Positions 422-10,960 are shown, counted from the first letter of the stretch. The stretch is 15,014 nt of DNA from Candidatus Hodarchaeota archaeon (GCA_048886685.1 JBHLKM010000011.1:1-15014), one strand, 5' to 3'. Translations and numbers: made by a program. The notes: a model not told the origin generated them from the sequence alone.

Positions 422-462
422 TATTCGAACTTTGCGAGAAGTTTCGAAGTTAAATCTAAAAA
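422..462 (+). promoter_or_regulatory. Conserved ~41-bp inverted-repeat element (copy 1) upstream of the Ubl gene
   Basis: tattcgaactttgcgagaagtttcgaagttaaatctaaaaa, with TTCGAA at 424-429 and 443-448. It matches the reverse complement of 9711-9751 at 36/41 positions and ends 47 nt before the Ubl ATG. Confidence 0.6.
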
Positions 463-509
463 TGATTTGTTGATATTATTTAATTATTTAAGAAAAAAAT
501 GAAAACAAA

Positions 510-764
510 ATGAGATTATCAGTAGAAGATACAAGAACTGGTAAGCGAATAAAGTTAGATGTGAAAGAACATCACATAATAGAACGTATTATAGAAATTG
601 TTGTTAAACATATGGGCTTTATTAGCTCAGAACAACGTTCTTATGCATTAGTCTATAAGGAGAAAGAGTTACCGAACGCGATAACTATTAAGGATGCAAT
701 CCATAAATTTGGTTTGAAAGAATATGATATTTTGATGCTTTGGACAAAAGTAATTGGAGGTTAA
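510..764 (+). CDS. Ubiquitin-like (beta-grasp) protein modifier with mature C-terminal Gly-Gly
   Basis: 84 aa ending VIGG-stop. TRTGKRIKLDV aligns with ubiquitin TLTGKTITLEV and LVYKEKEL with LIFAGKQL. Adjacent to E2, E1 and JAMM genes. Confidence 0.92.
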   Translation: MRLSVEDTRTGKRIKLDVKEHHIIERIIEIVVKHMGFISSEQRSYALVYKEKELPNAITIKDAIHKFGLKEYDILMLWTKVIGG

Positions 765-778
765 TAATAAAAGTTTCT

Positions 779-1354
779 TTACTCCTTAATAATAATTATT
801 TCATCCTCCTCATCAACTTTTTTCTCTTTTTCTTCTTCATCACTTTTAAAATTTCTTTTAAGTTCTTCCATTGAATTGTTTTTAAAGAACTCAGCAGCTT
901 CAATACAGATATTATATTGAAGTGGATCCTCAGGATTGGGGTTTTCTACTAATTTTTCTAATGATTTAACTGTAGTTTCTAAATCTGATAATCTTGACCA
1001 TTGTCTTAAAACATTTAAGCAAATATAACCAGTCCCTAGATTATTTGTATCTCTTAATTCAACGGGATGTATATTTGGGTGAAAAATATTTGAATACCAA
1101 GCAAAATCTATTCCCCCTGGATATGGAAAAGATCTGTTAATTTTAATGAAAATTCGGTGTTTTAATTGGGGTTTCACTTTGATTTTTTCCATTTTATTCA
1201 CTACAACAAATCCTAAGGCATTCAAATTGATCCATAATTCTACATTATTTTCTTGCCACCTTGCCGAATTTTCTTCAATGACTTTCATATGTTTTAGAAT
1301 TTTAATTTCATTATTTATTCGTTCTTTCCATATCTCAAATGGTAATTCCGGCAT
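779..1354 (-). CDS. Ubiquitin-conjugating enzyme E2 (UBC fold) with acidic C-terminal tail
   Basis: FPYP motif, FHPNI (H92-P93-N94), GYICLNVL with catalytic Cys112, downstream W, and NPNPEDPL. All are UBC signatures. Confidence 0.95.
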   Translation of the reverse strand: MPELPFEIWKERINNEIKILKHMKVIEENSARWQENNVELWINLNALGFVVVNKMEKIKVKPQLKHRIFIKINRSFPYPGGIDFAWYSNIFHPNIHPVELRDTNNLGTGYICLNVLRQWSRLSDLETTVKSLEKLVENPNPEDPLQYNICIEAAEFFKNNSMEELKRNFKSDEEEKEKKVDEEDEIIIIKE

Positions 1355-1383
1355 CTCTAATTCTTTAAAAATTATTATATATT

Positions 1384-2292
1384 TTAAATGATTTTATTCT
1401 TTGATTTTTTATATGAACAGGTCCAACAATTCGGATCTTTTAATTTATCAATAATAGTGAAATCATTGGTAAGTCCATTATATATTAGTTGTTTTCCAAT
1501 AATCGGTTCTCCTACACTAGGATTCCATTTTTTATGTTTTTTAAAGTAGTCAACACCGAGTAAAAATTTAAGAACTTGTTGTGATTGAATTCCCCCTATT
1601 ATCGAAGTAGTTGTTATGATCGTTGCTATTTTGCTTGTAGTTTCACCATCTTCGGATTTTATTTCTTCTCCAGTACATGAAAATTTTTTCCACATTAAAT
1701 CCAAATCTTGATTAGAAATCCCGCATTGTAAACAAGCTGAATCTCTTATCCCCGAATATACTGCCTGTACTGAACCAAAAAATCCATCTATTCCAGAATC
1801 AACAAAAGGAACTTCATAATAATATGCGTAATTATTTGCTTCTAATCGTGCTTCAAGATTATCTAAGCAAGAACATATTACATCACATTGGCTATAGAGA
1901 TTTTTATCTATCGCGTTTAAATCCTTTTTAATAGGAATTATGTTAACTTCAGGATTTAAGTCTTTACAAGCTTCCTTAATGACATCTGCTTTATATTCCT
2001 TATTGTCTGCAGCTTTAGGATTAAATAATACACCACGACTTAAATTTGAAGTTTCGATGAAATCATAATCAATTAATAATATTTTTCCTACGCCAGTTAG
2101 GGTTAAATTTTTTACAACTTCATTTCCAGTTGCTCCAGCACCAATAACCATGATCATAGCATTCGATATTTTAGCTTGATCCCATCCACTAATTCTTTTT
2201 TGACGATCAAATCTATCTGAATCTATATATTCTTCTCCAATAACATCAATATCATTATTTACTTTTTTACGCACCATATTTAATAAAATCAA
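1384..2292 (-). CDS. Ubiquitin-activating enzyme E1 (ThiF/MoeB-family adenylation domain with Zn site and candidate catalytic Cys)
   Basis: RFDRQ, GAGATG nucleotide-binding loop, DYD..SNLSR, CLDNLEAR, CxxC pairs (C187/C190 and C289/C292) and FSCT Cys206 in the crossover loop. TTG start; the ATG five codons later is an alternative. Confidence 0.95.
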   Translation of the reverse strand: MILLNMVRKKVNNDIDVIGEEYIDSDRFDRQKRISGWDQAKISNAMIMVIGAGATGNEVVKNLTLTGVGKILLIDYDFIETSNLSRGVLFNPKAADNKEYKADVIKEACKDLNPEVNIIPIKKDLNAIDKNLYSQCDVICSCLDNLEARLEANNYAYYYEVPFVDSGIDGFFGSVQAVYSGIRDSACLQCGISNQDLDLMWKKFSCTGEEIKSEDGETTSKIATIITTTSIIGGIQSQQVLKFLLGVDYFKKHKKWNPSVGEPIIGKQLIYNGLTNDFTIIDKLKDPNCWTCSYKKSKNKII

Positions 2293-2301
2293 ATTAATTA
2301 A

Positions 2302-2796
2302 TCAATTTGATGAGATAATTGCACTACTTACAGCTTTATATTTTTTGATAGAATCCTTGTTTAGTGTAAAAAATTTATGTACTTCTCGAATTGGATCTAC
2401 TACTAACGCAACTTGGTAAGATTCAGGAAAAAAAGATTCTTGGGTATGAATATCAGTTGCGGATAAAAAGCTACCTAAACCAATATGAGAATGCCACCAT
2501 CCTACCACTCGCAAATCTTTATCTTTTCTTCTGAGTTTTAATTTTTGAAATTCTTTTTCAAAATCTCCTGCGGTTCCCTCAATTTGGGACGTGATATATT
2601 TATCACTTCTTACTGCATTTTTTACATAAATTTGGTCTTTAATAATAATATATTTTTTGTTTTCCCATTTTAGTATCAAACCAATTAAATAACCAAAAAT
2701 TTCCCTATCTATATTTCTACATAATGTTTTAACTTGATTCAAAATATCTTCATGAATATATACGGGAAATACAAAATCCTTTTCGAGTGATGTCAA
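2302..2796 (-). CDS. JAMM/MPN+ metalloprotease (Rpn11/CSN5-like deubiquitylase)
   Basis: EIFGYLIG carries the catalytic Glu; VVGWWHSHIGLGSFLSATD is an intact HxHx7Sx2D motif; ALVVDP follows. Ends 9 nt from the E1 start on the same strand. Confidence 0.95.
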   Translation of the reverse strand: MTSLEKDFVFPVYIHEDILNQVKTLCRNIDREIFGYLIGLILKWENKKYIIIKDQIYVKNAVRSDKYITSQIEGTAGDFEKEFQKLKLRRKDKDLRVVGWWHSHIGLGSFLSATDIHTQESFFPESYQVALVVDPIREVHKFFTLNKDSIKKYKAVSSAIISSN

Positions 2797-2879: not shown

Positions 2880-3881
2880 TTAATTTAATTTATTAAAGGT
2901 TTTCAATGCCCATTCTGCCTCTTTTTCATAACCCCCATCTTTATACAATTTAATTGCTTTTTCAATCAAATTCCTTATTTTTGGATAATATTTTTCCTTT
3001 CTATTAACCGCACCGGATTTATCAAAGTCTAAGCTAAGTTTTAAAGCTTCACAAAAAATTGAATTTCCTAAAACTAATAATTTTAATTTCTTATCAGAAA
3101 GATGTTCATTGGCTTGATTAAAGAAATTATTTGCTTCTAAAAATTTTTGTGTATTCTTGTATTCCTCAGCAAGTTCCATGCATTCCCATGCCTTACATAG
3201 ATAATATAATGCAGAAATTTCCTCTTGAGCTTGCTCAGAACAAAGTTTTTTGAATTTAGATGCTGCAATTGAAAACTTCTTTGCTGATGAGAAAAAATTT
3301 CCTTCTTTTTCAAATATTCTTGCTTCTTCTATTTCAGACAAGATATTTTTAATATCCTCTTTTTCAATGGAATGAAGTTTTTCCAGATTTGATATTTTGA
3401 GGATTTCCTTAATAATAGCAATTATACCATCCTTAGAATCTTCTTGAATCGCTGAAAATCCAAATGTTTTTTCCTTTAATATATTTTCAACTTTTTCTAC
3501 ACTAAAAGAAATTGATTTTCTATCTTGAAAGTTAGCAATAATATAAAAATCGATTTCAGGTAATTTGTCTCTTAATTCTAATAATAACTCTGCTGTATTT
3601 CCAATATTTCTCTCAGTTGAATCTGTAACAATACAGATAATATCAATAGATCGTAGTAATTCCCAATATGAAACAAAATTATTTGTTAAATCTCTTAAAT
3701 CTATTTCTCTTAAAATGCACGGTTCTACACCTTCTAAATAGGGTACATCAACTGGTTTCTGAAGAATCTCATTTAAATCATCATCTAATTCTAAAATAAT
3801 TTCACCTGGAAATAGATCTAATATTGTTGTTTTTCCCACACCGCTTTCTCCAGTAAGTAGTATATTAAGAGGATTTGCCAC
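2880..3881 (-). CDS. Ras-superfamily small GTPase-like domain (degenerate) fused to a C-terminal TPR/SNAP-like helical domain
   Basis: G1 GESGVGKTT; ICIVTDST strand; G4-like ANFQD; G5-like FSA; no DxxG. The C-terminal half has helical Ala/aromatic repeats (SAKKFSIAA, EANNFFNQA, AIKLYKDGG). GTG start. Confidence 0.8.
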   Translation of the reverse strand: MANPLNILLTGESGVGKTTILDLFPGEIILELDDDLNEILQKPVDVPYLEGVEPCILREIDLRDLTNNFVSYWELLRSIDIICIVTDSTERNIGNTAELLLELRDKLPEIDFYIIANFQDRKSISFSVEKVENILKEKTFGFSAIQEDSKDGIIAIIKEILKISNLEKLHSIEKEDIKNILSEIEEARIFEKEGNFFSSAKKFSIAASKFKKLCSEQAQEEISALYYLCKAWECMELAEEYKNTQKFLEANNFFNQANEHLSDKKLKLLVLGNSIFCEALKLSLDFDKSGAVNRKEKYYPKIRNLIEKAIKLYKDGGYEKEAEWALKTFNKLN

Positions 3882-4159: not shown

Positions 4160-4369
4160 TTACAATCTAATTGTAGAATATTCTTCTCTAATTTTTAGAT
4201 AAATTATTAGTCCTATGAAAAAGGGGATTAACCAAATCACCAAGATCCAAGTAAAGGCATTCATATCTCTTTTTTGAGCATCTTTATAAACCCATATTGT
4301 TATAAGGGACAAAATAGAAAAAGGAATTGTTAAAAAAATTATAAGAAGTAATATCAATAGATTAATCAT
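4160..4369 (-). CDS. Small membrane protein, PLDc N-terminal (PLDc_N-like) domain
   Basis: Hydrophobic helices around WVYKDAQKRDMN..W and GLIIYL, the typical pattern of this family. GGAG Shine-Dalgarno-like motif upstream. Confidence 0.75.
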   Translation of the reverse strand: MINLLILLLIIFLTIPFSILSLITIWVYKDAQKRDMNAFTWILVIWLIPFFIGLIIYLKIREEYSTIRL

Positions 4370-4398: not shown

Positions 4399-5424
4399 TT
4401 AATTTTTCTTATTATTTAATTTATCAATTTTTACAGGCTTGGATTCGTCAAACGGGGTTTCACAAACCCAACACGTATTTTCTAAATTGGTTAATGCTTC
4501 TGAACACTTTACACAATAGAAAGCATTACATTTAGGACAAACATAATTTAATCTCGAAACCTTACTTTTACAAACTAAACATAATCCTTTTTCTCTGTAT
4601 AATTCAATTTCCTCAACTGTTATTGTTGAAGGTTTAGTAAAAATTTTTATAAAATCTTTAAGCTCTTCTTTAACAACCAGAGTTGAACTTTGTGGAGTTC
4701 GAATTTGCTTAGTTATATGAACTATTATATAGATAATTACAGCAACTAGAACAATAATCGAAATCCAAATTATTAATTGACTTATAATAAACAATGGTAA
4801 ATTTGTAAAAACTGTTAATCCTAAGAAAACTAAAATTCCTGCAATTGAGATTAAAACTAGCCAGTTAGCTACATGACTCGAAAAAAACTCCAGATCTATA
4901 ACTATTGGAAATATTGCAGTTAGAGCACCTATTACAATAAAAACTGATGGTATTGCTGGAGAGATAAGATTTAATTCTTTTATTGCCGTCGTTTCGAAAG
5001 CCCATCCTATCAAAACCATAGCAAATCCAATTGTCACTACTGAAGAAATTATTTGAAATTCTTTTTTTGATTTTATAGAAAACCAAATAAACATAATACT
5101 TAAAGATATTATACTTATAAGGATATAAACAAAAAAATATAAATAAAAATAAAGAAGAATATAGTTTTCAATTTCATAAGTTTGGATTATTATGCTTAAA
5201 TCTCCTGTATAAGTTCCTTCTAAGAAATAATCGGAAAAATAAAAGAATGTACGAGTTATAGCTATACTCAACCAAAAGCTTGCAAATCCATACATTAAAA
5301 CTTTTTCATGGATAATCTCTTTCTTACGACCATGGTCCAAATAAAATAAACTACTAACCATTAGTAAAATTATTGCTATACTAGAAAAAAAACGCTCAAT
5401 AGGATCAAAAACAATAAGAAGAAT
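4399..5424 (-). CDS. Multi-pass (6-7 TM) membrane protein with C-terminal C4C4 RING/PHD-like zinc finger
   Basis: The track ORF is 4399..5361; the frame extends 21 codons upstream to an ATT at 5424, behind GGTGAT. The C-terminus has CLVC-x10-CPKC-x4-CVKC-x10-CWVC (4462-4581). The start position is uncertain. Confidence 0.85.
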   Translation of the reverse strand: MLLIVFDPIERFFSSIAIILLMVSSLFYLDHGRKKEIIHEKVLMYGFASFWLSIAITRTFFYFSDYFLEGTYTGDLSIIIQTYEIENYILLYFYLYFFVYILISIISLSIMFIWFSIKSKKEFQIISSVVTIGFAMVLIGWAFETTAIKELNLISPAIPSVFIVIGALTAIFPIVIDLEFFSSHVANWLVLISIAGILVFLGLTVFTNLPLFIISQLIIWISIIVLVAVIIYIIVHITKQIRTPQSSTLVVKEELKDFIKIFTKPSTITVEEIELYREKGLCLVCKSKVSRLNYVCPKCNAFYCVKCSEALTNLENTCWVCETPFDESKPVKIDKLNNKKN

Positions 5425-5591: not shown

Positions 5592-6593
5592 ATGGCACAT
5601 AAATCTATAAAAACAATAATTATAATGGTTATTGTTTGTTTCAGTTTAATTTTTACTATCCCAATTGTTATCCTATCAACTACTCTTTCTCCCTATGGTA
5701 AAATTATTAAATCTATTCGATTCGATTATAAACCTTCGAGCCCTTCATTTATGGAAGAATTGAACATTAATGCGGATTTAGGGAATATTGAAATAAAATA
5801 TATCACTGAACCAGTAGATTATTGTGTAAGAATAAAAATAAATATTGAGATGATTGGTTCAAACTTAGCTGGAAAATCATATTTTGATTATTTTAATATT
5901 GTTTGGCAAAATACTAGCGGTATTGTAAATTTTACTATGAAGCTAAAAACAAATATAGACCACGTTGAAGTATTATCCGTAATAAAGAATGTTAACATAA
6001 CGGTAGCTCTTAAAGCAGATGTAATTTGTGATATAAATGCACTTATATATTTCCAAGGAAATGTTGGTATAACAGTTCCATGGAGGTTTACTATTGGTAA
6101 CATCTTAATAAATATTTCAAAAGGCGATATTAACTATTACTTTTCAAATTGTATTATAGAAGGAGAAATAACGGGAATTGTCCAAGAAACAGGGAGTATA
6201 AAATTAGAAACGAATAACGTTGAATACAAGAACAATAGTTTATGGACTCTTACTGCTGAAATTGGAAACATTGTTATAGAAATCAATCAAGATAAAACTA
6301 TGGGTGCGAATATAACTGGTACAGTCGTGACAAACATAGGAAATTATAGATTGGTTTATTTAGATAATAATGTGGATGTTGGTGCTCAATTTATATTATG
6401 TGCAAATCAAGATGATGTACCATTCCATCAAAAACTTACTGAAATCGTCGGATTTGAAGAGCCTGTGTTAAATGTTGTTGATGGAATTGATGTTTATACA
6501 TTAAACTCTAATGATTATCCGACATTAAATAATTATAATTTATCTTTTAGTTTACCAAATGGTTATTATGATATCGATCTTCAAAATAGTTGA
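5592..6593 (+). CDS. Membrane-anchored extracellular beta-strand-rich protein (DUF4097/adhesin-like)
   Basis: Single N-terminal hydrophobic helix followed by repeated units such as INADLGNIEI, INISKGDIN, LTAEIGNIVI and VVTNIGNYRL. Many N-x-S/T sequons. Confidence 0.7.
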   Translation: MAHKSIKTIIIMVIVCFSLIFTIPIVILSTTLSPYGKIIKSIRFDYKPSSPSFMEELNINADLGNIEIKYITEPVDYCVRIKINIEMIGSNLAGKSYFDYFNIVWQNTSGIVNFTMKLKTNIDHVEVLSVIKNVNITVALKADVICDINALIYFQGNVGITVPWRFTIGNILINISKGDINYYFSNCIIEGEITGIVQETGSIKLETNNVEYKNNSLWTLTAEIGNIVIEINQDKTMGANITGTVVTNIGNYRLVYLDNNVDVGAQFILCANQDDVPFHQKLTEIVGFEEPVLNVVDGIDVYTLNSNDYPTLNNYNLSFSLPNGYYDIDLQNS

Positions 6594-6675
6594 AAAGATT
6601 TAGTGTCCTTTGATTAGATGGAATTACTTTGTTGGTACAACTTCGCTAGAATATAATTAACAAGGTAAAATTTAT

Positions 6676-8496
6676 TTAATCCTTGAAATACATGTTTTTA
6701 TATTTTGAACAAAAATGATTAAATTGTAACCCCTTTACATTAGATCGATAAATGTTAAAATGATGTTTGCTATAAAGATAACACATTGGAAAAACCTCTT
6801 CAATTAACCTTTTTTGAATTTGGTAATATAATTCTTCCCTCACGGTTTCGTTAGTTTCTCCTATAGCTTCTTCCATCCTTTGCTGTGTTAGAGCGTCATT
6901 AACTTGACAATAATTTAAATCTAACGATTTATTTGAACATAAGATATTGATAATACTACTAGGATCATTAAAATTAGGAACAAAATTCATCCAGCCAATT
7001 TCAACCATGTTCAAGTGATAAGGAGGTATTTCCATATATATATTAAAATATTCTCCAATTGTTACATTGGCATCTACTACTTTGATACCTATTTGTTTTA
7101 AATTTTCCGTTAAAATAGCCAAAAGCGTATCAGAAAATGGTGATGGAATAGTTGTATAGTTGTATGTAACTAGGGGGGTCCCATCATCTACTAGCTTTCC
7201 CCATTCATTACCCACAGAAACATTATCATCAGCAGTTAAGGCTCCAGCTATTCCAGCCCAGTTAACGTCTTTTAGCGTTTGTCGCGCCATTGAAACATTA
7301 TAGTAAGGAATATCAATATTGGTAGTATTTGAATATAATATTCCTTCTGGTATGGGAGATTTAAGCCTTGTTCCATGACCATTTAACCATTTATCAATAA
7401 AAGCTGAGTAATTAAAAGCATATGAGATTGCTTTTCTCATAGTTACATTGAGTAATTCGTTGTTCATTATTAGATAACAAAAGACCGTAGCTGGGGGTCC
7501 TTCTTCCACTATAATATCAGGATGATTTATAAATGTGTCTAGGAGGTCTTTATCATAATAGATATTATTGACGTAGTCTGTATCCATTAATAACTCTACG
7601 TTTCCACTCAAAACTGAAAGATCTCCCGATAATATCGCATCATATCTAGCTTCATTAGTATCATAATTTTTGAATATTAATTTATCAATCTGGGGTTTGT
7701 CGCCCCAATAGTTTGGATTGGAAGATAATGTGGTATTTATACTAAAGGAAAAATTTATAATTGGATTATATACAAAGGTAGTTGAATCATAAATAAATGG
7801 ACCCGTTCCGATTATCTTTTCAGTTAGGTGATCAATAAAAAGATCACTTGGGGTGGAAGTAGGAGATAATATAAATGCAGTATGAGACGCTAATAATGCA
7901 GTGAGGGGAACATAGGGCTTATTTAATATAATCTTCACATTATAATCTCCATCGGATTCCGTCCTGTTTATAATTCGATTTTTATAATTCGTTCGATTCC
8001 CATCGGGAAATATCCAAAATTGTGCCTTCGTCCAATGCATTTTACCATTGTCGATTAAAGCGTATATCCTTTTAATATTCCATTGAACTGCTGCAGCATT
8101 AAATGCAGTTCCATCATGGAACTGAACCCCTTGTCTTAGTTCACATGTTAATTCTGTATAATTTCCATTCCATGTATGATTAATAGCAAGGTTATGAATT
8201 ACACGAGACTGTTCACCAGCAATGTTATGAGTAAATAATCCTTCAGCAGCTTGACTTATTATCTCATAATCAGTTGGAGCCCAAGTTTGAAGAGGATCAA
8301 TCCCAATACCTAAACCCATATATGACACATAAAGAATTTTTTTTTTTGGTATTTTTGTAAAAATAACTATTCCACCAATAATTCCTGCTATAGCTACAAC
8401 AGCAATTATTCCAAGACCTAAAATTGGTTTTTTCTTTAACAATCGGACTTCCTTTTTAGGAAGTTTTTTCTTTGGTGCTTTATGATCTATACTCAT
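6676..8496 (-). CDS. ABC transporter substrate-binding protein, family 5 (DppA/OppA-like), N-terminally membrane-anchored
   Basis: EGLF, LRQGVQFHDGTAFNAAAVQWN, GTGPF, NPNYWG, MRKAISYAFN, LKQIGIKV and REELYYQIQ are family-5 motifs. A basic stretch plus TM helix forms the N-terminus. Confidence 0.93.
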   Translation of the reverse strand: MSIDHKAPKKKLPKKEVRLLKKKPILGLGIIAVVAIAGIIGGIVIFTKIPKKKILYVSYMGLGIGIDPLQTWAPTDYEIISQAAEGLFTHNIAGEQSRVIHNLAINHTWNGNYTELTCELRQGVQFHDGTAFNAAAVQWNIKRIYALIDNGKMHWTKAQFWIFPDGNRTNYKNRIINRTESDGDYNVKIILNKPYVPLTALLASHTAFILSPTSTPSDLFIDHLTEKIIGTGPFIYDSTTFVYNPIINFSFSINTTLSSNPNYWGDKPQIDKLIFKNYDTNEARYDAILSGDLSVLSGNVELLMDTDYVNNIYYDKDLLDTFINHPDIIVEEGPPATVFCYLIMNNELLNVTMRKAISYAFNYSAFIDKWLNGHGTRLKSPIPEGILYSNTTNIDIPYYNVSMARQTLKDVNWAGIAGALTADDNVSVGNEWGKLVDDGTPLVTYNYTTIPSPFSDTLLAILTENLKQIGIKVVDANVTIGEYFNIYMEIPPYHLNMVEIGWMNFVPNFNDPSSIINILCSNKSLDLNYCQVNDALTQQRMEEAIGETNETVREELYYQIQKRLIEEVFPMCYLYSKHHFNIYRSNVKGLQFNHFCSKYKNMYFKD

Positions 8497-8918: not shown

Positions 8919-9659
8919 TTAATACAATTTTATGAAGTTGCAAGGCCATATTGGCCAAAATGGATCTATAAAATTATATCCCTTCTTTGCGGATCCATAC
9001 GTAGCTCCTACTACTTTTGCAACATCTCCAAGCTCTAAACCATTCCAGTCATTAACCATTTCTCCTTTACCTGTACCGATAAAGAGCACGCTTACAAACT
9101 CCAATCCAAACTCATACCACATAAGAGCATCAAAAGCAAGAGGCAAATATCCAGGTAGTATAACATACCCTGTCTCATCATCAAAGCCATCATCATCTAA
9201 CCATGGTACTAACCAAGGCGGCCATTCTTCTAAATCAACTATGAATCTTAACTGAAATATATAATCCATTTTCCCTACAAATAGTGTGATGATATTACTA
9301 GGATCAGGATCATATGTTTCGACTAGTACCGGCGCTCCTTTTACTCGTATGTGGACTGTTATCATATGTCTTCCATCAGGCAATTCTCTTTCAAGGATGT
9401 GTCCATGATAATCGCACTCCAATATAGATACGAAATTCCAATAAGGATCATATTCGCGATGTGGGCAGATTACTAACTGTTCTGAAGCCCAATATCCTAT
9501 ATGATCATTTAAAGGAGTTACGCCATCAACTGATATGAGCCAATCATCTTCGAGAGATCTTTTTATAGTACCGTGTCCCAGAACTGTAGGTAAAAAGCAA
9601 ATTACTAAGAGCCCTAGAGCTACACTTAATAAAATTTTTTTATTTTTCATTTTTTTCAT
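8919..9659 (-). CDS. Secreted hypothetical protein with signal peptide
   Basis: MKKMKNKK, a hydrophobic core, then TVLG as a likely cleavage region. AAGAGG lies directly before the first ATG. The mature part is rich in Trp, Pro and Asp; no family recognised. Confidence 0.8.
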   Translation of the reverse strand: MKKMKNKKILLSVALGLLVICFLPTVLGHGTIKRSLEDDWLISVDGVTPLNDHIGYWASEQLVICPHREYDPYWNFVSILECDYHGHILERELPDGRHMITVHIRVKGAPVLVETYDPDPSNIITLFVGKMDYIFQLRFIVDLEEWPPWLVPWLDDDGFDDETGYVILPGYLPLAFDALMWYEFGLEFVSVLFIGTGKGEMVNDWNGLELGDVAKVVGATYGSAKKGYNFIDPFWPIWPCNFIKLY

Positions 9660-9710
9660 CCTCTTTCTTTTTTTAAATTAGTGTTAACTGAAATTTAACA
9701 CACAAATTAA

Positions 9711-9751
9711 TTTTTAGATTTAGCTTCGAAACTTTACACAAAGCTCGAATA
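9711..9751 (-). promoter_or_regulatory. Conserved ~41-bp inverted-repeat element (copy 2) upstream of the secreted-protein gene
   Basis: The minus strand reads tattcgagctttgtgtaaagtttcgaagctaaatctaaaaa, 36/41 identical to 422-462. It ends 51 nt before the ATG at 9659. Confidence 0.6.
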
Positions 9752-10621: not shown

Positions 10622-10780
10622 TTAGTCTTTTTCATGGATTTCTGAAGGTTTTACACCATCAAACAATTCAAGTTTTAAGAACCTCTTCTCTTTTTTACAA
10701 TTAGGACAAAAGTAATAACCTGGTTCTTTATTCCTATAACTAAAACCACATTCCTTACATACTGCGTAAAACAAAGACAT
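10622..10780 (-). CDS. 52-aa Cys4 zinc-ribbon microprotein (paralog A), not in the ORF track
   Basis: Translated by hand: MSLFYAVCKECGFSYRNKEPGYYFCPNCKKEKRFLKLELFDGVKPSEIHEKD*. CxxC-x13-CxxC. Confidence 0.85.
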   Translation of the reverse strand: MSLFYAVCKECGFSYRNKEPGYYFCPNCKKEKRFLKLELFDGVKPSEIHEKD

Positions 10781-10807
10781 ATAATAAAAAAAATTATAGA
10801 TGATTAT

Positions 10808-10960
10808 TTAATTTATCTCGTGAAGTTCGTTTGGTTTCGCACCGCAAAAAGCTTCGAACTTGAAAAACTTCATTTCTTTATTACAATTAGGGCAGAAATA
10901 GGTACCAGGGTTCTTATTCTCAAATGAATACCCACATTCTTTACAAACAATCGTATTCAT
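10808..10960 (-). CDS. 50-aa Cys4 zinc-ribbon microprotein (paralog B), not in the ORF track
   Basis: Translated by hand: MNTIVCKECGYSFENKNPGTYFCPNCNKEMKFFKFEAFCGAKPNELHEIN*. 29/50 identical to paralog A without gaps. Confidence 0.85.
   Translation of the reverse strand: MNTIVCKECGYSFENKNPGTYFCPNCNKEMKFFKFEAFCGAKPNELHEIN

Follow-up and report, generated by a model that had tools for sequence, protein, structure and literature searches.

An accessory ubiquitin-like module of Lokiarchaeia and its candidate membrane RING ligase

The window analysed here is a stretch of 15,014 nucleotides (nt) from Candidatus Hodarchaeota archaeon (GCA_048886685.1 JBHLKM010000011.1:1-15014), and opens contig C11. 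The genome comprises 4.4 Mb, and its relatives bear the names Promethearchaeota/Lokiarchaeia. The window encodes a ubiquitin-like modifier (Ubl), an activating enzyme (E1), a conjugating enzyme (E2) and a JAMM/MPN+ isopeptidase and, close by, a polytopic transmembrane (TM) protein ending in a RING-fold finger (TM-RING). We consider it fairly likely that these genes form an accessory E1-E2-RING ligase (E3) conjugation pathway of Lokiarchaeia, directed by the membrane RING and reversed by the JAMM protein. The module is a Ubl pathway distinct from the core and ESCRT-linked ubiquitin of Asgard archaea and related to the systems of Micrarchaeota and Thermoplasmatota.

The four core genes

All four open reading frames (Table 1) were re-located where the initial annotation had placed them, and its tight minus-strand JAMM-E1-E2 run (gaps of 9 and 29 nt) facing a convergent Ubl gene 14 nt away proved exact; the order JAMM>E1>E2><Ubl is seen in 24 of the 26 relative loci with a complete set of the four genes. 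The catalytic motifs, which it had described as intact, belong to proteins with Pfam or profile matches and are invariant across orthologs: the crossover-loop C206 and the Zn cysteines 187, 190 and 289 of the E1, which has two Zn CxxC pairs; the HPN motif and C112 of the E2; E32, H102, H104, S112 and D115 of the JAMM protein; and G83-G84 of the Ubl. The Ubl profile matches ubiquitin and NEDD8, as well as Asgard ubiquitin (hhalign P 97.7%). The E1 (302 aa, with an alternative ATG start at 2277) has no C-terminal UBL/UFD and ends about 10 residues past the last CxxC in all orthologs; other Asgard E1s comprise 312–361 aa. The E3-binding surface of the E2, formed by helix 1, loop 4 (FPYP) and loop 7, is conserved. 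Most Ubl orthologs carry a propeptide of 1–7 residues after the GG, which argues for a maturation role of the JAMM protein.

Variants of these proteins occur elsewhere. A 542-aa protein (L100:6911-8539) has a domain 44% identical to the full-length Ubl. Several related archaeal E2s are Ubl-GG-E2 fusions (P0128, P0129, P0140, P0141, P0144 (L243)), one of which adjoins a JAB gene; such fusions are probably JAB-processed precursors. P0121 (L264:3398-4456) is a tandem double E2 of the same family, in which both catalytic cysteines appear to be replaced.

A RING-fold finger close to the module

The TM-RING gene lies on the same strand as the enzymes, 1.6 kb from the JAMM gene, and its true start may be up to 24 codons upstream. 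The finger has the pattern C-x2-C-x10-C-x2-C-x4-C-x2-C-x10-C-x2-C, with seven invariant cysteines and C or H at ligand 5, the ligands being spaced as in Asgard srfp RINGs (hhalign P 69%). Its model has a predicted local distance difference test (pLDDT) value of 89, and the structure matches almost only RING and U-box folds. The predicted complex of E2 and finger scored 0.64, against 0.00 for the best control (58 of 80 solved complexes pass the mark for this score, as do 2 of 110 mismatched pairs), and docks the finger on the canonical E3 surface of the E2; the runs share at least 58% of contacts, with a partner pLDDT of at least 71. In the predicted interface, helix 1, P77 of loop 4 and residues 121–124 of loop 7 of the E2 face loop 1, the central helix and loop 2 of the RING, surfaces that have been shown to matter in Caldiarchaeum (PMC5654768). 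The full-length TM-RING model is of low confidence (pLDDT 58); a fold search with it returned only generic helical bundles, and an Atlas search only Promethearchaeota clusters. The module probably uses a membrane-embedded RING ligase encoded 1.6 kb from it. The initial annotation had proposed conjugation that is E3-independent or relies on a distant E3; a RING-fold candidate at such short distance, with a shared phyletic pattern and predicted E2 binding, speaks for neither.

Apart from the window copy, the genome has no full member of this family, and 0.3% of random loci would lie within 5 kb of one, so that proximity by chance through family expansion was rejected for this genome. On another contig, a 544-aa protein (G000:C13:124925-126559) combines E2/UEV-like repeats with a C-terminal RING-like finger.

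Table 1. Features of the locus and its surroundings, in window coordinates
Feature	Position	Strand	Remarks
wHTH (winged helix-turn-helix) regulator, 3' end (5' part on contig C4)	1..411	+	family matches wHTH/MarR
Inverted-repeat operator TTCGAA-N13-TTCGAA, then TATA-like box	424..463	+	upstream of Ubl
Ubl, ubiquitin-like modifier	510..764	+	84 aa, VIGG-stop end; mature form ends GG
E2, UBC fold, HPN + catalytic C112	779..1354	-	Pfam UQ_con 3e-10
E1, compact ThiF/MoeB fold, Micrarchaeota-type	1384..2292	-	Pfam ThiF 1.6e-48; TTG start
JAMM/MPN+ isopeptidase, putative maturation and deconjugation	2302..2796	-	Pfam JAB 2.7e-10
Degenerate Arf-like GTPase fused to helical/TPR-like repeats	2880..3881	-	directly upstream of JAMM
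Small two-TM protein, weak PLDc_N-like match	4160..4369	-	usually adjoins TM-RING gene
Six-to-seven-TM protein + C-terminal C4C4 RING-fold finger (C261-C300), candidate membrane E3	4399..5361	-	
Second operator copy	9710..9750	-	upstream of secreted-protein gene 8919-9659

Co-inheritance of the finger and the module

In 59 of 60 relatives, the finger and the E2 are either both present or both absent. Across 149 genomes, finger and Ubl are both present in 66 and both absent in 66; three have the Ubl only and 14 the finger only, many of the latter being fragmented assemblies. The joint absences are interspersed over an rpoB tree built from 58 selected genomes, with 15 changes by parsimony; absence groups that include a genome of at least 90% completeness number about 14, and about a dozen joint absences count as independent. 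Some nodes of this tree are weak, and gains are indistinguishable from losses. Module-positive genomes have 1–23 finger matches, often on several contigs, and most module-negative genomes have none; a single linked deletion does not account for this distribution. The phyletic pattern is independent support for the link between finger and module. The pseudo-GTPase encoded directly upstream of the JAMM gene, whose family is found in 64 of the 149 genomes, behaves likewise, 62 of these 64 being Ubl-positive and all of them finger-positive. The module had been called self-contained, a description that does not fit the way in which pseudo-GTPase and TM-RING track it across genomes.

A separate ancestry

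The genome holds two further E1/E2 loci, on contigs C1 and C13. The core locus on C1 (G000:C1:127668-133021, L009) comprises two Ubls with acidic N-terminal tails that end in STAG instead of GG, an E1, an E2, a JAB protein and a TM protein with a C-terminal Ubl-like domain. A stand-alone Ubl of 74 or more residues ending in GGI, with no E1 or E2 nearby (G000:C5:78465-78689), is the best match of the genome to canonical Asgard ubiquitin (E 1.8e-6). The core E2 of C1 is present in 107 of 124 family genomes and 120 of 149 class genomes, and it is mostly 87–98% identical within the genus. In contrast, the window-type Ubl is present in 65 of the 124 family genomes and the window E2 is 58–71% identical in most same-genus genomes. 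The window E2 was found only in two families of the order and not in the 161 non-family Asgard genomes searched; the module is also missing from many of the near-complete genomes searched. It is an optional, accessory system of Lokiarchaeia, separate from the standard one. A reading as housekeeping, based on presence in 30 of 35 same-genus genomes, did not stand up to the survey of the whole class and the comparison with the core E2.

In a search of 1.84 billion proteins, the closest relatives of the E2 from outside included archaeal E2s encoded in ThiF-RING-JAB-Ubl-E2 loci; the E1 family of these loci is named Micrarchaeota. In a maximum-likelihood tree, the window-type E1s are sister to the Micrarchaeota E1s (ultrafast bootstrap (UFBoot) 100), with which they share the catalytic motif W-K-K-[FY]-S-C, and stand apart both from ESCRT-linked Asgard E1s and from the E1s of C1 and C13; the approximately unbiased (AU) test rejects joining them with other Asgard E1s (p-AU 0.003). 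The Ubl is sister to its Micrarchaeota counterparts too (support 98), and the E2 shares a clade with those of Micrarchaeota, Thermoplasmatota and Theionarchaea that is removed from the eukaryote-like and the ESCRT-linked E2s. The three trees were built without Caldiarchaeum's own sequences, and the E2 clade without named bacterial references. The other E1/E2 loci in the genome and the separation in all three trees bear out the suggestion of the initial annotation that this is a second, distinct Asgard Ubl pathway. The queries used detected no relatives of the E2 or Ubl in plasmids, phages or IMG/VR, and no description of this locus type or of the TM-RING family in Asgard archaea was found in the literature, of which our coverage is incomplete.

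The pseudo-GTPase and satellite cassettes

The Arf-like protein keeps the P-loop, has lost the DxxG motif and has NFQD in place of NKxD; in most relatives it is fused to a longin domain. Its gene context makes it the leading candidate for a substrate or adaptor of the pathway. In some relatives (L041:3668-6310 and L042–L045), a longin-pseudoGTPase heading the operon is fused to TPR repeats and a C-N hydrolase (nitrilase), giving a protein of about 880 aa. The module is scattered in the sister family f4 (L059, L060, L091, L093), with E2 and Ubl apart; in G038, of the same family, the E1 still adjoins the pseudo-GTPase.

Several genomes carry satellite cassettes of the form TM-RING > small TM > pseudo-GTPase >< Ubl < wHTH, without JAMM, E1 or E2. 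The closed chromosome G005 has one window-type E1, three Ubls and five fingers, including RING>pseudoGTPase><Ubl<wHTH cassettes that lack E1 and E2. The window locus is a satellite-type cassette with the enzymes inside.

Flanks, operator and regulator

Contigs C11 and C4 overlap exactly over 77 nt (C11:1-77 and C4:1-77) and join head to head; the joined frame is open for 457 codons and restores a tandem winged-helix regulator of about 440 aa. In L089, too, a wHTH precedes the Ubl, and it is 80–89% identical to the one in the window. Between the window wHTH and the Ubl lies an operator with a TATA-like element that is also found upstream of the Ubl in seven relative loci. Seven operator matches exist genome-wide, six of them within about 13 kb around the wHTH gene, and shuffles give one or two. 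The copies near the wHTH gene (including C4:1194-2740) precede the Ubl gene and three secreted-protein genes, which make up a local regulon. In L087, the operator is also found upstream of the TM-RING gene.

A promoter of its own had been assigned to the Ubl because of its convergent orientation. This layout does not prove it, since the wHTH gene, on the same strand, ends 98 nt upstream; the conserved operator and TATA-like element do support it. Because this operator precedes the Ubl, control of modifier supply apart from the enzymes, as the initial annotation had proposed, is plausible, and the adjacent wHTH protein probably reads the operator. A sigma-70 promoter scan gave matches at chance level and is not applicable to archaea. 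No RNA holder was listed for the locus, which has no bearing on its expression. In L087 and L088, which belong to another genus (rpoB 81–82% identical at the nt level), the Ubl is 94% identical to that of the window and the E1 and E2 73–79%, which suggests that the operator-Ubl unit was recently transferred or converted.

No ESCRT gene or soluble RING is recognisable in the window, as previously noted, nor in 22 kb of contig C4. Vps4, ESCRT-III and Vps25 are absent within 10 kb, and no small soluble RING (srfp) is present in the window, in C4:1-22 kb or in the loci of relatives, where a TM-fused RING is found instead. The ESCRT genes of the genome sit on contigs C10 and C3, unlinked to the module. 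Ubiquitin and ESCRT loci are normally unlinked in Lokiarchaeota (PMC9192718), so the missing linkage is unsurprising. With no ESCRT or soluble RING gene recognisable in these flanks and the ESCRT genes on other contigs, the module is not a part of the known Asgard ubiquitin locus whose E3 and ESCRT genes happen to lie just outside the window.

Other neighbours include a membrane-anchored protein and an OppA-like binder encoded convergently (5592-8496), a pair duplicated with Ubl cassettes in many relatives, and two small paralogous Zn-ribbon reading frames (52 and 50 aa; 10622-10960) upstream of an AlaX-like gene.

Comparison with known systems

The module is probably of the archaeal 'Cluster III' kind (Hennell James et al. 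2017), to which it was matched by description and not by member list. As described in Supplementary Note 4 of that work (PMC5654768), Cluster III has a clustered Ubl, E1, E2 and JAB, an E1 without a C-terminal UBL domain, and E1 and E2 set apart from the Caldiarchaeum and Asgard Clusters I and II, all of which applies to the window. What distinguishes the window from that description is the polytopic membrane RING E3 candidate, the pseudo-GTPase and the operator-controlled Ubl. In the one biochemical study, only small RING proteins are reported in archaea (PMC5654768). The Micrarchaeota ThiF-RING-JAB-Ubl-E2 loci have a sister E1, a sister Ubl and E2s of the same broad clade; their RING, unlike that of the window, is soluble, forming the end of a protein of 320–370 aa without TM segments, and they have no pseudo-GTPase.

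With the Ub/E1/E2/srfp/Rpn11 operon of Caldiarchaeum and the ESCRT-linked ubiquitin of Asgard archaea the module shares the chemistry and the component list (PMC5654768, PMC9192718, 10.1101/2023.07.25.550441), the srfp-like spacing of RING ligands, the PY of loop 4 and loop 7 of the E2, and Ubl precursors with tails accompanied by a JAMM protein. It differs in that its E1, E2 and Ubl fall in clades separate from the Asgard homologs, in being accessory and not core, and in the missing E1 UBL domain, ESCRT linkage and linchpin arginine of the RING.

A parallel with the bacterial Bil systems had also been drawn. It holds for the gene content of BilABCD, which has Ubl, E2, JAMM and an E1 without UFD (10.1101/2023.09.26.559546), and fails for E1 architecture, E2 type, gene order and context. 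Bil has an E1 of Type II with the domains IAD-AAD-CYS, whereas the E1 of the window is a single adenylation domain of 302 aa with a short crossover loop and neither an IAD nor a helical CYS domain. The Bil E2 is of the C138/H151 (CEHH) type and lacks C-terminal helices, whereas the E2 described here is a canonical HPN...C-L-x-x-L-x-x-W UBC protein with PNxxxP and C-terminal helices and no His after C112. The window locus also carries a RING E3 candidate and, by the neighbours tested, lies in no defence island. Bil structures are absent among the PDB sequence matches listed, an absence that gives no verdict. Because E1 architecture, E2 type and context fail, the module is not a Bil member.

Eukaryotic polytopic RING ligases, such as Hrd1, MARCH/Doa10 and RNF43/ZNRF3, combine a TM domain with a cytoplasmic RING. 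The TM-RING has the same layout, and the Hrd1 RING is among the fold matches of its finger, but no homology was found for the TM part. It looks like an analogous, lineage-restricted architecture and not like an ancestor of the eukaryotic membrane RINGs.

Discussion

In the pathway that we propose, the compact E1 would adenylate the C-terminal GG of the Ubl and form a thioester at C206, as its motifs indicate, and would then hand the Ubl to C112 of the E2. The cytoplasmic RING of the approximately 7-TM protein, and of its paralogs, is predicted from fold and docking to recruit the charged E2. The Ubl would be placed on membrane-proximal targets, gene context pointing to the co-inherited pseudo-GTPase, or partners that it delivers, as the most likely ones. 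The JAMM protein would trim propeptides and remove the tag, and the supply of Ubl would be set separately by the operator, probably read by the adjacent wHTH protein. In relatives, the TM-RING, the pseudo-GTPase and the Ubl are present in growing numbers of copies alongside one E1/E2, and this fits receptor-like signalling or membrane-protein sorting, not bulk turnover.

Several points weigh against this proposal. The fold-match scores of the finger are modest (best Z 5.0, root mean squared deviation 2.6 over 52 residues; Foldseek best E 0.03), and the same ligand spacing occurs in fingers of the TFIIH p44 type, which have no clear E3 activity. The linchpin Arg/Lys after the last cysteine is absent (E301 here; E, D, N, Q or G in the family), and its equivalent R69 matters in Caldiarchaeum (PMC5654768). 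RING-E2 being a textbook pair, the complex score shows likeness and not binding, and may reflect resemblance to solved RING-E2 structures. The near-complete genomes G111 and G107 keep finger homologs without Ubl, the co-occurrence counts include kin, which are not independent data points and for which a Fisher p-value is therefore not used, and part of the synteny goes back to the duplication of whole blocks together with OppA-like genes. The pseudo-GTPase, finally, is taken as a target from gene context alone.

One alternative, which we regard as unlikely, concerns the role only and is compatible with the E3 mechanism: invader proteins would be tagged in an antiviral or anti-symbiont defence, with the TM-RINGs as variable sensors. 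The patchy spread and faster evolution in comparison with the core E2, described above, are in keeping with such a role, as are a likely horizontal transfer from or to DPANN and the multiplication of sensor-like genes. However, the genes around the module code for secreted proteins, OppA-like binders and housekeeping functions, and those tested gave no PADLOC or other defence-system matches except generic E1/JAB domains (the gene context of 40 loci was viewed); across many genera, E1 and E2 keep a stable context and are mostly present as one copy, and the defining features of Bil are missing.

Conjugation without an E3, as in Bil, SAMP or Ubc9-like systems, with E1 and E2 attaching the Ubl and the TM-finger protein being a co-regulated sensor or substrate, also seems unlikely to us. 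Bil E1 and E2 do need no E3 for conjugation (10.1101/2023.09.26.559546), the linchpin is missing from the finger, synteny is stricter for the four-gene core than for the finger gene, and an insertion of about 10 residues before C112 of the E2, together with its acidic tail, could pick substrates directly. Yet the helix and loops that bind an E3 are invariant in the E2, the finger, with its RING fold, is predicted to sit on that surface, and the related Micrarchaeota loci carry a RING gene too.

Very little room is left for the view that the module is a plain paralog of the Asgard/Caldiarchaeum ubiquitin operon (Clusters I/II) and serves ESCRT or the proteasome. The homology of the Ubl to Asgard ubiquitin and the known separation of ubiquitin and ESCRT loci in Lokiarchaeota (PMC9192718) would agree with it, but it is largely refuted by the trees, in which the E1 joins Micrarchaeota and monophyly with other Asgard E1s is rejected, and it is at odds with the missing UBL domain of the E1, the confinement of the E2 within the Asgard genomes searched and the many near-complete genomes lacking the module. 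Sulfur-carrier chemistry of the ThiS/MoaD kind in place of protein conjugation is hardly credible: the E1 is ThiF/MoeB-sized, with best NCBIfam matches to ThiF/MoeB that all fall far below cut-offs, and some bacterial Cluster III relatives act in sulfur pathways according to the PMC5654768 supplement, but the locus has a RING and an E2 with an invariant catalytic Cys, the Ubl resembles ubiquitin and not ThiS/MoaD, no sulfur-pathway genes are nearby, and the genome has separate MoeB and SAMP-like genes.

A more far-reaching scenario, beyond the E1-E2-RING pathway that we favour, is offered as a tentative possibility. A Loki lineage would have acquired a Ubl cascade of the DPANN type and, on its own, developed receptor-like ubiquitin signalling from it: a 7-TM RING family with up to about 20 members per genome would share one E1/E2, a dedicated longin/TPR pseudo-GTPase would be modified, and paralogous Ubls would be supplied by operator-controlled satellite cassettes. 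If true, this would represent a prokaryotic convergence on membrane E3 and GTPase control.

With the module, the idea of a polytopic RING E3 family in prokaryotes becomes open to test, as its soluble parts (84–302 aa, plus a finger of 78 aa) are of a size that suits direct reconstitution. The ubiquitin genes of Asgard archaea tend to be lumped as eukaryotic signature proteins; since the ancestry of at least one Loki cascade differs and is shared with DPANN, the module should be left out of arguments on eukaryogenesis.

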